Shown here piece by piece: positions 479 through 5,293 of a DNA stretch of 5,293 nucleotides; the first letter of the stretch is position 1; each line of letters starts with the position of its first letter. The notes below the pieces were generated by a model. The model saw only the letters and a program-made list of their open reading frames with translations, searched no databases and was not told where the DNA came from. The position numbers were made by a program, and so were the translations under genes. The stretch lies in the IMG/VR virus record IMGVR_UViG_2645727562_000005, one strand, 5' to 3'. Origin of the DNA: a virus (taxonomy: Duplodnaviria > Heunggongvirae > Uroviricota > Caudoviricetes).

Positions 479-3400
479 ATGGGTAAAGGCAGCAGTAAGG
501 GGCATACTCCGCGCGAAGCGAAGGACAACCTGAAGTCCACGCAGTTGCTGAGTGTGATCGATGCCATCAGCGAAGGGCCGATTGAAGGTCCGGTGGATGG
601 ATTAAAAAGCGTGCTGCTGAACAGTACGCCAGTGCTGGACACTGAGGGGAATACCAACATCTCCGGCGTCACGGTGGTGTTCCGGGCAGGTGAGCAGGAG
701 CAGACACCGCCGGAGGGATTTGAATCCTCCGGCTCCGAGACGGTGTTGGGTACGGAAGTGAAATACGACACGCCGATCACCCGCGCCATCACGTCGGCAA
801 ACATCGACCGACTGCGCTTTACCTTCGGTGTGCAGGCACTGGTGGAAACCACCTCAAAGGGGGACCGGAATCCGTCGGAAGTCCGCCTGCTGGTTCAGAT
901 ACAGCGTAACGGTGGCTGGGTGACGGAAAAAGACATCACCATTAAGGGCAAAACCACCTCGCAGTATCTGGCCTCGGTGGTGGTGGATAACCTGCCGCCG
1001 CGCCCGTTTAATATCCGGATGCGCAGAATGACGCCGGACAGCACCACAGACCAGCTGCAGAACAAAACGCTCTGGTCGTCATACACCGAAATCATCGATG
1101 TGAAACAGTGCTACCCGAACACGGCACTGGTCGGCGTGCAGGTGGACTCGGAACAGTTCGGCAGCCAGCAGGTGAGCCGTAATTATCATCTTCGCGGGCG
1201 CATTCTGCAGGTGCCGTCGAACTATAACCCGCAGACGCGGCAATACAGCGGTATCTGGGACGGAACGTTAAAACCGGCATACAGCAACAACATGGCCTGG
1301 TGTCTGTGGGATATGCTGACCCATCCGCGCTACGGCATGGGGAAACGTCTTGATGCGGCGGATGTGGATAAATGGGCGCTGTATGTCATCGGCCAGTACT
1401 GCGACCAGTCAGTGCCGGACGGTTTTGGCGGCACGGAGCCGCGCATCACCTGTAATGCCTACCTGACCACGCAGCGTAAGGCGTGGGATGTGCTCAGTGA
1501 TTTCTGCTCGGCGATGCGCTGTATGCCGGTATGGAACGGGCAGACGCTGACGTTCGTGCAGGACCGACCATCAGATAAGGTGTGGACCTATAACCGCAGT
1601 AATGTGGTGATGCCGGATGATGGCGCGCCGTTCCGCTACAGCTTCAGCGCCCTGAAGGACCGCCATAATGCCGTTGAGGTGAACTGGATTGACCCGAATA
1701 ACGGCTGGGAGACGGCGACAGAGCTTGTGGAGGACACGCAGGCCATTGCCCGTTACGGTCGTAACGTCACGAAGATGGATGCCTTTGGCTGTACCAGCCG
1801 GGGGCAGGCACACCGCGCCGGGCTGTGGCTGATTAAAACAGAACTGCTGGAAACGCAGACCGTGGACTTCAGCGTGGGTGCCGAAGGGCTTCGCCATGTG
1901 CCGGGCGATGTCATTGAAATCTGTGATGATGACTATGCCGGTATCAGCACCGGCGGGCGCGTGCTGGCGGTAAACAGCCAGACCCGGACGCTGACGCTCG
2001 ACCGTGAAATCACGCTGCCATCCTCCGGTACCACGCTGATAAGCCTGGTTGACGGAAGTGGCAATCCGGTCAGCGTGGAGGTCCAGTCCGTCACCGACGG
2101 CGTGAAGGTAAAAGTGAGCCGTGTTCCTGACGGCGTTGCCGAATACAGCGTATGGGGGCTGAAGTTGCCGACGTTGCGCCAGCGCCTGTTCCGCTGCGTG
2201 AGTATCCGTGAGAACGACGACGGCACGTATGCCATTACCGCCGTGCAGCATGTACCCGAAAAAGAAGCCATCGTGGATAACGGGGCGCACTTTGACGGCG
2301 ACCAGAGCGGCACGGTGAATGGCGTCACGCCGCCCGCGGTGCAGCACCTGACTGTCGAAGTCACCGCAGACAGCGGGGAATATCAGGTGCTGGCGCGCTG
2401 GGACACGCCGAAGGTGGTGAAGGGGGTGAGCTTCCTGCTTCGCCTGACCGTGGCAGCGGACGATGGCAGTGAGCGGCTGGTCAGTACGGCAAGGACGACG
2501 GAAACCACATACCGCTTCACGCAACTGGCGCCGGGGAACTACAGGCTGACTGTCCGGGCGGTAAATGCGTGGGGACAGCAGGGCGATCCGGCATCGGTAT
2601 CGTTCCGGATTGCCGCACCGGCAGCGCCGTCTCGGATTGAGCTGACACCGGGCTATTTTCAGATAACCGCCACGCCGCATCTTGCGGTTTATGATCCGAC
2701 GGTACAATTTGAGTTCTGGTTCTCGGAAACGCGGATTACCGATATCAGGCAGGTTGAAACCACAGCCCGCTACCTTGGCACGGGGCTGTACTGGATAGCC
2801 GCCAGTATCAATATCAAACCGGGCCATGATTATTACTTTTATATCCGCAGTGTGAACACCGTTGGCAAATCGGCATTCGTGGAGGCCGTCGGTCGGGCGA
2901 GCGATGATGCGGAAGGTTACCTGGATTTTTTCAAAGGCAAGATAACCGAATCCCATCTTGGTAAAGAGCTGCTGGAAAAAGTCGACCTGACGGAGGATAA
3001 CGCCAGCAAACTGGAGCAGTTTTCGAAAGAGTGGAAGGATGCTAACGATAAGTGGAATGCCATGTGGGGCGTCAAAATTGAGCAGACCAAAGACGGCAAA
3101 CATTATGTCGCGGGTATTGGCCTCAGCATGGAGGACACGGAGGAAGGCAAACTGAGCCAGTTTCTGGTTGCCGCCAATCGTATCGCGTTTATTGACCCGG
3201 CAAACGGGAATGAAACGCCGATGTTTGTGGCGCAGGGCAACCAGATATTCATGAACGACGTGTTCCTGAAGCGCCTGACGGCCCCCACCATTACCAGCGG
3301 TGGAAATCCACCGGCATTTTCCCTGACACCGGACGGAAAGCTGACTGCTAAAAATGCGGATATCAGTGGCAGTGTGAATGCGAACTCCGGGACGCTCAAC

Positions 3401-3874
3401 AACGTCACGATTAATGAGAACTGTCAGATTAAGGGGAAACTGTCAGCCAACCAGATTGAAGGCGATATAGTCAAAACAGTGGGTAAGGCTTTTCCGCGGG
3501 ACTCCCGGGCACCGGAGCGGTGGCCATCAGGGACCATTACCGTCAGGGTTTATGACGATCAGCCGTTTGACCGGCAGATTGTTATTCCGGCGGTGGCATT
3601 CAGTGGCGCTAAGCATGAGAGAGAGCATACTGATATTTACTCCTCATGCCGTCTGATAGTGCGGAAAAACGGTGCTGAAATTTATAACCGTACCGCGCTG
3701 GATAATACGCTGATTTACAGTGGCGTTATTGATATGCCTGCCGGTCACGGTCACATAACGCTGGAGTTTTCGGTATCAGCATGGCTGGTGAATAACTGGT
3801 ATCCCACAGCAAGTATCAGCGATTTGCTGGTTGTGGTGATGAAGAAAGCCACCGCAGGCATCAGTATCAGCTGA
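479..3874 (+). CDS. J: Central tail fiber / host specificity protein J (tail tip), 1131 aa
   Basis: Uninterrupted ORF ending at TGA 3872-3874. The start is placed at ATG 479 ([38 protein letters not shown]...), which matches the lambda gpJ N-terminus from memory and has a GGAG Shine-Dalgarno at 467-470, 8 nt upstream. The GTG at 434 used in the ORF track would add 15 residues with no RBS. The protein is near-identical to lambda J over roughly the first 970 residues, then divergent at the C-terminus. Confidence 0.95.
3398..3871 (+). other. J: Divergent C-terminal receptor-binding region of J (about 158 aa)
   Basis: From about ...[30 protein letters not shown]... to the C-terminus ...[17 protein letters not shown] the protein departs from the lambda gpJ C-terminus as I recall it (…SNVTIAENCTINGTLRAEKIVGDIVKAASAAFPR…VMVIKKQALGISVV). 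Short conserved islands remain (WPSGT, FDRQIV, VDMPAG.G, KK..GIS), so it is a homologous but different receptor-binding domain. The exact boundary is approximate. Confidence 0.7.
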
Positions 3875-3893
3875 ATTTTATAACCCATATACG

Positions 3894-3917
3894 GGCGCCA
3901 GAAATGGCGCCTTTTTT
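3894..3917 (+). terminator. Rho-independent terminator downstream of J
   Basis: GGCGCC (3894-3899), loop AGAAAT, GGCGCC (3906-3911), followed directly by TTTTTT (3912-3917). It starts 20 nt after the J stop codon. Confidence 0.7.
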
Positions 3918-3941
3918 ATTGCAGAAAAGCGAGAGGTAATT

Positions 3942-4013
3942 ATGCGTAAACTTTATGCCGCCATTTTGTCCGCAGCCATTTGTCTGGCCGTATCCGGTGC
4001 GCCTGCATGGGCG
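3942..4013 (+). other. lom: Predicted Sec signal peptide of Lom (about 24 aa, cleavage after AWA)
   Basis: Positively charged N-terminus (MRK), a hydrophobic core (LYAAILSAAICLAV) and an A-x-A motif (AWA|SEHQ). The cleavage position is inferred, not computed. Confidence 0.65.
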
Positions 4014-4541
4014 TCTGAACATCAGTCCACGCTGAGCGCGGGGTATCTTCATGCCCGGACCAACGTTCCCGGCAGTGATGATCTTAACGGGATTAACGTG
4101 AAATACCGTTATGAGTTTACGGATACGCTGGGGCTGGTGACGTCATTCAGCTATGCAGGAGACAAGAATCGCCAGCTGACCCGTTACAGCGATACCCGCT
4201 GGCATGAAGATTCCGTGCGTAACCGCTGGTTCAGCGTGATGGCGGGGCCGTCTGTGCGCGTGAATGAATTGTTCAGCGCGTATGCGATGGCGGGTGTGTC
4301 TTACAGCCGTGTGTCGACTTTCTCCGGAGATTATCTGCAGGTGACCGACAACAAGGGGAAAACGCATGATGTGCTGACCGGAAGTGATGACGGTCGCCAC
4401 AGCAACACGTCTCTGGCGTGGGGAGCTGGCGTGCAGTTTAACCCGACCGAATCCGTGGCCATTGATATTGCTTATGAAGGCTCCGGCAGTGGCGACTGGC
4501 GCACTGACGGTTTCATCGTGGGTGTCGGTTATAAGTTCTGA
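3942..4541 (+). CDS. lom: Lom outer membrane protein (Ail/Lom/PagC/OmpX family 8-stranded beta-barrel), 199 aa
   Basis: ATG at 3942 with a GAGAGG Shine-Dalgarno at 3931-3936; stop TGA at 4539-4541. The translation MRKLYAAILSAAICLAVSGAPAWASEHQSTLSAGYLHA...GSGSGDWRTDGFIVGVGYKF matches lambda Lom from memory, with an N-terminal signal peptide and a C-terminal aromatic residue (…GYKF) typical of outer-membrane beta-barrels. Confidence 0.95.
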   Translation: MRKLYAAILSAAICLAVSGAPAWASEHQSTLSAGYLHARTNVPGSDDLNGINVKYRYEFTDTLGLVTSFSYAGDKNRQLTRYSDTRWHEDSVRNRWFSVMAGPSVRVNELFSAYAMAGVSYSRVSTFSGDYLQVTDNKGKTHDVLTGSDDGRHSNTSLAWGAGVQFNPTESVAIDIAYEGSGSGDWRTDGFIVGVGYKF

Positions 4542-4568
4542 TTAGCCAGGTAACACAGTGTTATGACA

Positions 4569-4594
4569 GCCCGCCGGTTCAGGCGGGCTTTTTT
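4569..4594 (+). terminator. Rho-independent terminator downstream of lom
   Basis: GCCCGCC (4569-4575), loop GGTTCA, GGCGGGC (4582-4588), followed by TTTTTT (4589-4594). It starts 28 nt after the lom stop and ends 11 nt before the stf start codon. Confidence 0.75.
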
Positions 4595-4605
4595 GTGGGG
4601 TGAAT

Positions 4606-5293
4606 ATGGCAGTAAAGATTTCAGGTGTACTGAAAGACGGCACAGGAAAACCGGTAGAGAACTGCACCATTCAACTGAAAGCCAGACGGACCAGCAGCAC
4701 GGTGGTGGTGAACACGCTGGCCTCAGAAAATCCGGATGAAGCCGGGCGTTACAGCATGGACGTTGAGTACGGTCAGTACAGAGTCATTCTGTTGGTGGAA
4801 GGAGTCCCGCCGTCACATGCCGGGACCATCACCGTGTATGAAGATTCTCAACCCGGTACGCTGAATGATTTTCTCGGTGCCATGACGGAGGAGGACGCCC
4901 GGCCGGAGGCACTGCGCCGTTTTGAACAGATGGTGGAAGAGGTGGCGCGTCACGCTGAGGAGGCGAAGAAGAATGCCGGAGAGGCGGAGACGTCAGCGAG
5001 GAATGCCGGCATATCAGCCAGTCAGGCAGAAGAGAGCGCTGCAAATGCTGACACTTCAGCAGGGGAGGCATCGGAGTCAGCCCGGCAGGCGGCAGAAAGT
5101 GCAGCCTCAGCAAAGCAGTCAGAGGATGCGTCCTCGTCCTCGGCTTCTGCGGCCGCTCAAAAAGCCAGTGAGTCATCACAAAGTGCAGCAGAAGCTGAAT
5201 TGTCAAGAAAGACGGCAGAAAGTGCAGCCGGTAATGCAGCCAGGGATGCAACGACCGCAACAGAAAAAGCCCGGGAGTCAGCAGAAAGCGCAC
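4606..5293 (+). CDS. stf: Side tail fiber protein Stf, N-terminal portion (3'-partial; runs off the window end)
   Basis: ATG at 4606 preceded by a G-rich Shine-Dalgarno-like GTGGGG (4595-4600). I translated the frame by hand: MAVKISGVLKDGTGKPVENCTIQLKARRTSSTVVVNTLASENPDEAGRYSMDVEYGQY...TITVYEDSQPGTLNDF..., with no stop codon to the end of the window. It matches the lambda Stf (orf-401) N-terminus from memory and is followed by an Ala/Ser/Glu-rich repetitive segment. It is missing from the ORF track only because it has no stop in the window. Confidence 0.88.
   Translation, partial: MAVKISGVLKDGTGKPVENCTIQLKARRTSSTVVVNTLASENPDEAGRYSMDVEYGQYRVILLVEGVPPSHAGTITVYEDSQPGTLNDFLGAMTEEDARPEALRRFEQMVEEVARHAEEAKKNAGEAETSARNAGISASQAEESAANADTSAGEASESARQAAESAASAKQSEDASSSSASAAAQKASESSQSAAEAELSRKTAESAAGNAARDATTATEKARESAESA

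Follow-up and report, generated by a model that had tools for sequence, protein, structure and literature searches.

In bacteriophage lambda, Q-dependent antitermination yields a modified late transcription complex that ignores terminators. Receptor-blocking outer-membrane genes lie beside tail genes in a number of phages, such as cor in phi80, HK022 and N15, and llp in T5, and members of the Ail/PagC family such as pagC are regulated through PhoP-, SlyA- or RpoS-type control. Morons, as defined from HK97 and HK022, possess their own promoter and terminator and have a deviant GC content (Juhala et al. 2000, reviewed by Cumby et al. 2012, PMC3594210).

Reports of lom expression in lysogens cover only alleles other than the one described here, and are mixed. 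Lambda lom is listed in reviews as expressed in lysogens (PMC7067206), and the lom gene of the Stx phage phi24B has been described as constitutive, being expressed from the repressed prophage (PMC4651098); in those phages, at least, lom must then have a start site of some kind. Osterhout et al. did not detect lom expression in a lysogen, and suggested possible repression under laboratory conditions (PMC2147009). Overexpressed lambda Lom was found in a 2025 study to block lambda-vir and not T7, with the level of Lom in lysogens being too low for exclusion and rising dramatically late in infection, and a late-phase anti-adsorption role was suggested (PMC12366544).

The window, the whole 5293-nt stretch of DNA analysed here, is the I-J-lom-stf part of the late tail operon in a lambda-like prophage of E. 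coli, with all the genes found in it on the + strand. Its features are as follows:

5-418, + strand: C-terminal part of a gpI-like open reading frame
434/479-3874, + strand: J, tail tip/host-specificity gene (open reading frame and Pfam)
3878-3886, + strand: motif TTATAACCC, between the J stop codon and the terminator 1 hairpin
3893-3920, + strand: predicted terminator 1, comprising a hairpin (3893-3912) and T-run (3912-3917), then ATT (consensus scan)
3921-4593, + strand: presence/absence unit (~673 bp) of a 21-nt leader with Shine-Dalgarno sequence, lom and the terminator 2 hairpin (homology breakpoints)
3931-3936, + strand: Shine-Dalgarno sequence GAGAGG, 5 nt before the lom ATG
3942-4541, + strand: lom, 199 aa (Pfam PF06316 Ail_Lom, E = 8e-119)
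4414-4955, + strand: stretch in common with lambda at 88.6% nucleotide identity (last ~130 nt of lom, terminator 2, start of stf)
4568-4594, + strand: predicted terminator 2, comprising a hairpin (4568-4589) and T-run (4589-4594) (consensus scan)
4606-5293, + strand: 5' part of stf, side tail fibre gene, leaving the window (PF08400 phage_tail_N, 9e-68)

The glycine/alanine-rich open reading frame that enters from the window start, of which 137 aa are present, had no Pfam match at E <= 0.001 although its position would lead one to expect the C-terminal end of tail assembly protein I. The J reading frame opens at GTG 434, although from its resemblance to lambda J we take ATG 479 (MGKGSSKGH...) to be the likely start, and it has eight gpJ-type Pfam matches that include the C-terminal receptor-binding domain, with Phage-tail_3, FNIII-A_GpJ, Ig_J, Ig_J_second, Phage_Tail_Tip and Ig_GpJ_C all at E <= 1e-34. 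The segment is very common in E. coli prophages: positions 3600-4800 match 4891 of 5426 complete E. coli genomes (best identity 98.7%), at a median of two places per genome with any match, and the filled J-lom-stf layout, with at least 80% of this query covered, is present in 3554, these and the following locus counts being biased by sampling through similarity to the window and through one exact empty-site pattern. Megablast likewise placed positions 3700-4700 in 222 phage records, with identities as high as 96.3%; most of these records are of Stx-converting phages or other lambda-like phages of E. coli.

The product of lom is an eight-stranded outer-membrane beta-barrel of the Ail/Lom family, in agreement with the first-pass annotation of this DNA, which had assigned the gene between J and stf to the Ail/PagC/OmpX family. 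It matches positions 1-199 of the 199-position PF06316 profile at 395 bits (cut-off 23), and the solved chains of Lom (PDB 9wso_C, 5.8e-49), Ail (3qra) and OmpX (1orm), the latter two at ~1e-17. Judged by eye, the first 24 aa, which end in AWA (MRKLYAAILSAAICLAVSGAPAWA, followed by SE), resemble a Sec signal peptide; the C-terminus, inspected in the same manner for the C-terminal aromatic residue of a beta-signal, reads ...GVGYKF. Chain C of 9wso is titled 'Outer membrane protein lom' and has 206 aa, the length of lambda Lom; with the example chain being C, the entry probably contains further chains, and a binding partner could bear on the function of Lom.

The lom locus of lambda (J - lom - orf-401/stf; NC_001416 18965-19585) has the same position and gene order. 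There too J and lom are separated by a hairpin resembling an intrinsic terminator, the GAGAGGT Shine-Dalgarno sequence of lom lies in a short leader, and terminator 2 and the beginning of stf are the same as in the window. By contrast, the 5' two-thirds of lambda lom represent a different allele (46% amino acid identity; 199 aa in the window and 206 aa in lambda), and the C-terminus of J also differs. The hairpin upstream of lom in the window is GGGCGCC-AGAAAT-GGCGCC(T), with 8 pairs, of which 6 are GC, and a GAAA loop, followed by TTTTTTATT, and folds at -15.7 kcal/mol (z = -3.2 relative to shuffles), whereas that of lambda is CGTCCG-GGAA-CGGGCG followed by T4ATTAT, at about -9.7 kcal/mol; the lambda leader also has a TATAAA/TATTAT string that is lacking in the window. 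A recombination breakpoint is found inside lom at 4414, and alleles of lom have therefore been exchanged within the gene, besides the gain or loss of the whole cassette.

Such gain or loss is evident from junctions at which J and the tail-fibre gene are adjacent. In the lambda-like phages ev207 and ev017, the tail-fibre gene begins 58-60 nt after J, with no lom between them, and the junction has the form J-stop ... GGGCGCCAGAAATGGCGCC TTTTTT ATT TGTGGAGTGAAT ATG(stf). The corresponding sequence in the window is GGGCGCCAGAAATGGCGCC TTTTTT ATT GCAGAAAAGCGAGAGGTAATT ATG(lom) ... AGCCCGCCGGTTCAGGCGGGC TTTTTT GTGGGGTGAAT ATG(stf). When the window was compared by BLAST with seven empty-site loci, the left homology stopped at 3920 and the right restarted at 4589 in every case (7/7), with a 5-nt overlap in the subject sequences that corresponds to the T-run. 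The unit present or absent therefore spans approximately 3921-4593, its ends being ambiguous by ~5 nt of T-run, and terminator 1 stays in the empty site. An exact-pattern scan found the empty junction in 86 IMG/VR contigs, and a 141-nt junction-spanning query, at least 80% covered, found it in 1226 of 5426 complete E. coli genomes, including Nissle 1917 and ATCC 11775; in RefSeq, among the matches listed, a gene with a tail-fibre N-terminal domain directly follows J. From these comparisons lom is an accessory presence/absence gene, and either an insertion of lom or a deletion between the two T-tracts could underlie the polymorphism.

The lom allele of the window is found behind four J C-terminal receptor-binding types, which have 32-81% amino acid identity to each other, and three of these four also occur with the empty site. 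The upstream DNA shared by all lom-bearing loci is therefore only the short stretch from the J stop codon to the leader. Every retrieved copy of this allele with intact upstream sequence follows J and terminator 1, and hence a search of the retrieved copies for another genomic context, in which an ancestral promoter might have been preserved, found no alternative. The C-terminal third of J (~2976-3920) is itself strongly mosaic, with breaks in homology at ~2976/3061, 3435, 3790, 3836 and 3857.

Terminator 1 is an element of J and the phage backbone and lies outside the lom unit, since junctions without lom retain the same hairpin, T-tract and ATT. Twenty-four distinct versions of the hairpin were recovered from filled and empty junctions, with the stems GGCGCC/GGCGCC, GGCGTC/GACGCC, GGCACC/GGTGCC and GGCACCTC/GAGGTGCC, and both the GGCGCC and GGCACC stems were seen with and without lom. 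Across the alignment, 97.9% of cells are paired and compensatory changes are present in three of the eight stem pairs; the resulting covariation score was reached by none of 500 shuffles and by no slid register, which points to a stem kept under selection. The first-pass annotation had described lom as a terminator-bracketed cassette, and this now applies to one side only: the downstream terminator lies within the unit, while the upstream one persists in empty junctions. It is puzzling that a terminator should be kept by compensatory substitutions at the J-stf junction of an operon transcribed by Q-dependent read-through, even where lom is missing. The hairpin, at 3893-3920 in the window, is at 2541-2566 in locus L001 and 2669-2696 in L002. 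In one IMG/VR contig (L112, ~1000-2500), the terminator 1 hairpin that closely precedes lom is interrupted by a ~1.4-kb insertion sequence of the IS4 family, with a transposase matching the Pfam families Nterm_IS4 and DDE_Tnp_1, and the hairpin segment CACCAGAAATGGTG flanks this insertion on both sides. The motif TTATAACCC, or a close variant of it (TTATTAACCC, TTAAAACCC), is found in nearly all junctions, filled and empty; it is conserved across otherwise differing J alleles, although lambda lacks it, and no function is apparent for it.

Terminator 2, by contrast, is, by the breakpoints, the one that travels with lom. Its hairpin, AGCCCGCC-GGTTCA-GGCGGGCT, has 8 pairs (7 GC) and a 6-nt loop followed by TTTTTT, folding at -18.6 kcal/mol (z = -2.9 relative to shuffles), and is almost invariant, being identical in 96 of ~150 loci, such that covariation is uninformative. 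A variant lom-stf spacer of 157-158 nt, found in loci L053 and L025, has a different terminator in its place (GAAGCCCG...CGGGCTTTTTTT) as well as a different stf leader; the lom allele of L025 is 84% identical to that of the window. In the contig IMGVR_UViG_2690316273_000018 (L027/L017), two stf N-terminal starts are situated ~1.4 kb apart, with the 3' end of lom and terminator 2 repeated before the second, representing either a local duplication or an assembly artefact.

Lom compares only in part with the morons of HK97 and HK022. Like these, it is an extra gene between genes that are adjacent in relatives, J and stf, has its own downstream factor-independent terminator inside the indel, and codes for a host-surface protein that is dispensable for virion assembly. 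Unlike these, the unit has no promoter detectable by sequence scans in or next to the insert, its upstream terminator belongs to the backbone, and its base composition is not deviant: GC content is 55.7% in lom, 56.8% in J and 56.9% in stf, the correlation of relative synonymous codon usage between J and lom is 0.76, and neither base composition nor codon use of lom is anomalous.

As the first-pass annotation had observed, lom has its own Shine-Dalgarno sequence, and 24 nt lie between the upstream terminator, with its T-run ending at 3917, and the ATG at 3942. The DNA inserted before this ATG amounts to only 21 nt, too little to accommodate a promoter; this leader, GCAGAAAAGCGAGAGGTAATT, hardly varies between loci that have the window's lom allele. 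As that one allele is found behind unrelated J 3' ends, there can be no conserved promoter in the 3' end of J either. A sigma70 consensus scan of the whole window found no match on the + strand. A position-weight scan of 3600-3945, containing the 3750-3945 interval in which the first-pass annotation had proposed promoter prediction, reached at best 8.74, against a median shuffle maximum of 8.5, with lacUV5, PR and PL scoring 12.5-14.4 on the same matrix, which is crude and was built on consensus frequencies from the literature. Nothing exceeded chance, which bears out the earlier failure to see a convincing sigma70 promoter here, and the same was true of 89 distinct 400-nt upstream contexts from related loci (maximum 9.15, median 8.74). 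Both types of scan miss weak, activator-dependent or alternative-sigma promoters. A literature search found no paper mapping the transcription start of lom.

Individual candidates fared no better. CTGATA-17-TGAAAT (3653/3676; score 8.74), TTGATA-16-TCACAT (3729/3751; 6.83) and CAGGCA-18-TATAAC (3855/3879; 4.65) were rejected as sigma70 promoters, all being at chance level. TATAAC at 3879-3884, taken alone as a -10 element, has no -35 and has C at its last position, is equally present in junctions without lom, and would give a transcript opening with the terminator hairpin. An Rfam search found no element at or above its gathering score, and the match to Trp_leader (21 bits, against 41) was the terminator 2 hairpin itself. 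An antiterminator or riboswitch-like alternative structure was also rejected, the J 3' ends being too variable to conserve a partner strand.

We consider it probable, on this evidence, that lom rides in the late operon as a passenger without a promoter, transcribed mainly through Q-antiterminated read-through, and that its expression in the prophage would be at most weak. What the sequences show is the anatomy, with the limits of the indel, the covariation of terminator 1 and the lack of a consensus promoter; the anatomy is more certain than this reading as a whole, and the mode of transcription, which we infer, is less so. During lytic growth, Q-modified RNA polymerase would pass both terminators and co-transcribe lom with J and stf, and translation from the gene's own Shine-Dalgarno sequence would give high late expression. 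In the repressed prophage the late operon would be silent, with terminator 1 blocking stray tail-gene transcripts from lom and stf, and terminator 2 keeping transcripts that enter lom from reaching stf. Any lysogenic expression would then be low, and would come from a weak or factor-dependent start not visible in the sequence.

The first-pass annotation had instead regarded lom as a classic moron, independently transcribed in the lysogen from a constitutive promoter of its own that would overlap terminator 1 or the 3' end of J, and insulated by its own terminators. This would conform to the classic definition, in which a moron has both promoter and terminator (PMC3594210), and would fit the inclusion of lambda lom among lysogen-expressed genes (PMC7067206), the constitutive phi24B lom (PMC4651098) and the terminator found on each side of the gene. 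We nevertheless regard it as unlikely here. The upstream terminator also occurs in lom-less junctions; the indel provides only the 21-nt leader before the ATG; no promoter-like site rises above chance in either the window or the 89 related contexts; copies of one lom allele follow J 3' ends of unrelated sequence; the GC content shows no anomaly; and a transcript started upstream of terminator 1 would run into an 8-bp GC-rich hairpin followed by U6. The sequence favours the promoterless passenger over a promoter-gene-terminator moron.

Still less probable is a non-consensus promoter in the terminator/leader region that depends on a factor such as PhoP, SlyA or RpoS and is active only under host-associated conditions, although other members of the family, such as pagC, are regulated in this manner. 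The laboratory repression suggested by Osterhout et al. (PMC2147009) would be in keeping with such a promoter, as would the near invariance of the segment formed by the T6, ATT and leader across loci; the latter, however, is accounted for by the terminator T-tract and the Shine-Dalgarno sequence. PhoP-box matches in the window occur no more often than expected by chance, and the sole one upstream of lom (3712-3728) has 3 mismatches, lies ~214 nt before the ATG and is upstream of terminator 1. Likewise a sigma54-like string, TGGCGC-N8-TTGCA (3905-3923), has a spacing that is 3 nt too long and, by eye, loses its GG in the common GACGCC stem.

Both hairpins appear by sequence criteria to be genuine intrinsic terminators, as the first-pass annotation had proposed and at the positions given there, the consensus scan, folding and the counts that follow being in agreement; their strength is predicted. 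A loose scan found 5 sites in the window against 5.4 in shuffles and, because this was no excess, a strict definition was applied (at least 7 perfect pairs, at least 5 of them GC, a loop of 3-8 nt, then T6), under which terminators 1 and 2 are the only sites in the 5293 nt, both on the + strand and one in each of the J-lom and lom-stf gaps, with just 1 of 1000 dinucleotide shuffles containing any such site (0.001 expected per window). That the hairpins are instead chance inverted repeats, as the loose scan might suggest, or mRNA-stabilising 3' structures with no terminator function, is hardly credible given this strict count, their placement on the coding strand on either side of lom, the compensatory evolution of terminator 1, the exchange of terminator 2 for another terminator in the variant spacer, and the annotation of a terminator on each side of lom in the GenBank record of phage Ayreon (MF807953).

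Lom resembles cor and llp in being a small outer-membrane protein gene directly after, and co-oriented with, a receptor-binding tail gene, an arrangement that would fit a late-infection function against non-productive adsorption; it differs in that Lom is a beta-barrel rather than a lipoprotein. The occurrence of one lom allele with four J receptor-binding domains, three of which also occur without lom, argues against a tight J-specific pairing. It is with some reserve that we suggest, as a possibility, that this passenger has a mainly lytic-phase job rather than being an independently transcribed lysogenic-conversion gene, and that the J terminator may have a role of its own. The former may, for instance, consist of coating the outer membrane of the dying cell against unproductive adsorption of progeny or kin phage, as the 2025 study proposed for lambda Lom (PMC12366544), while the latter might, in the prophage, shield stf/tfa and any cargo from transcription that does not depend on Q. 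A different arrangement is found in short-tailed Stx phages of the 933W/phi24B type (e.g. NC_049922 gp58), in which an Ail/Lom protein with ~40% identity to that of the window is encoded in another gene context, downstream of tail-fibre genes. Instead of a terminator and 21-nt leader, these genes have an AT-rich spacer of 90-118 nt upstream (1144-1233 in locus L251; 1384-1500 in L252), and this layout looks, from its sequence, more like an independent transcription unit.

The J-lom-stf arrangement is already known and ubiquitous, and its description as a backbone terminator with promoterless cargo is a modest refinement. Lom is a textbook prophage moron, a virulence-associated cargo gene that about two-thirds of complete E. 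coli genomes contain in this layout, and it is this stereotype that is corrected: the mobile unit consists of a Shine-Dalgarno sequence, gene and terminator with no promoter, docked on the T-tract of an existing terminator, so that the expression of lom probably follows the late operon rather than lysogeny. While this is no new kind of system, it bears on whether Lom is to be viewed as a factor of lysogenic conversion or as one of exclusion in the lytic phase.
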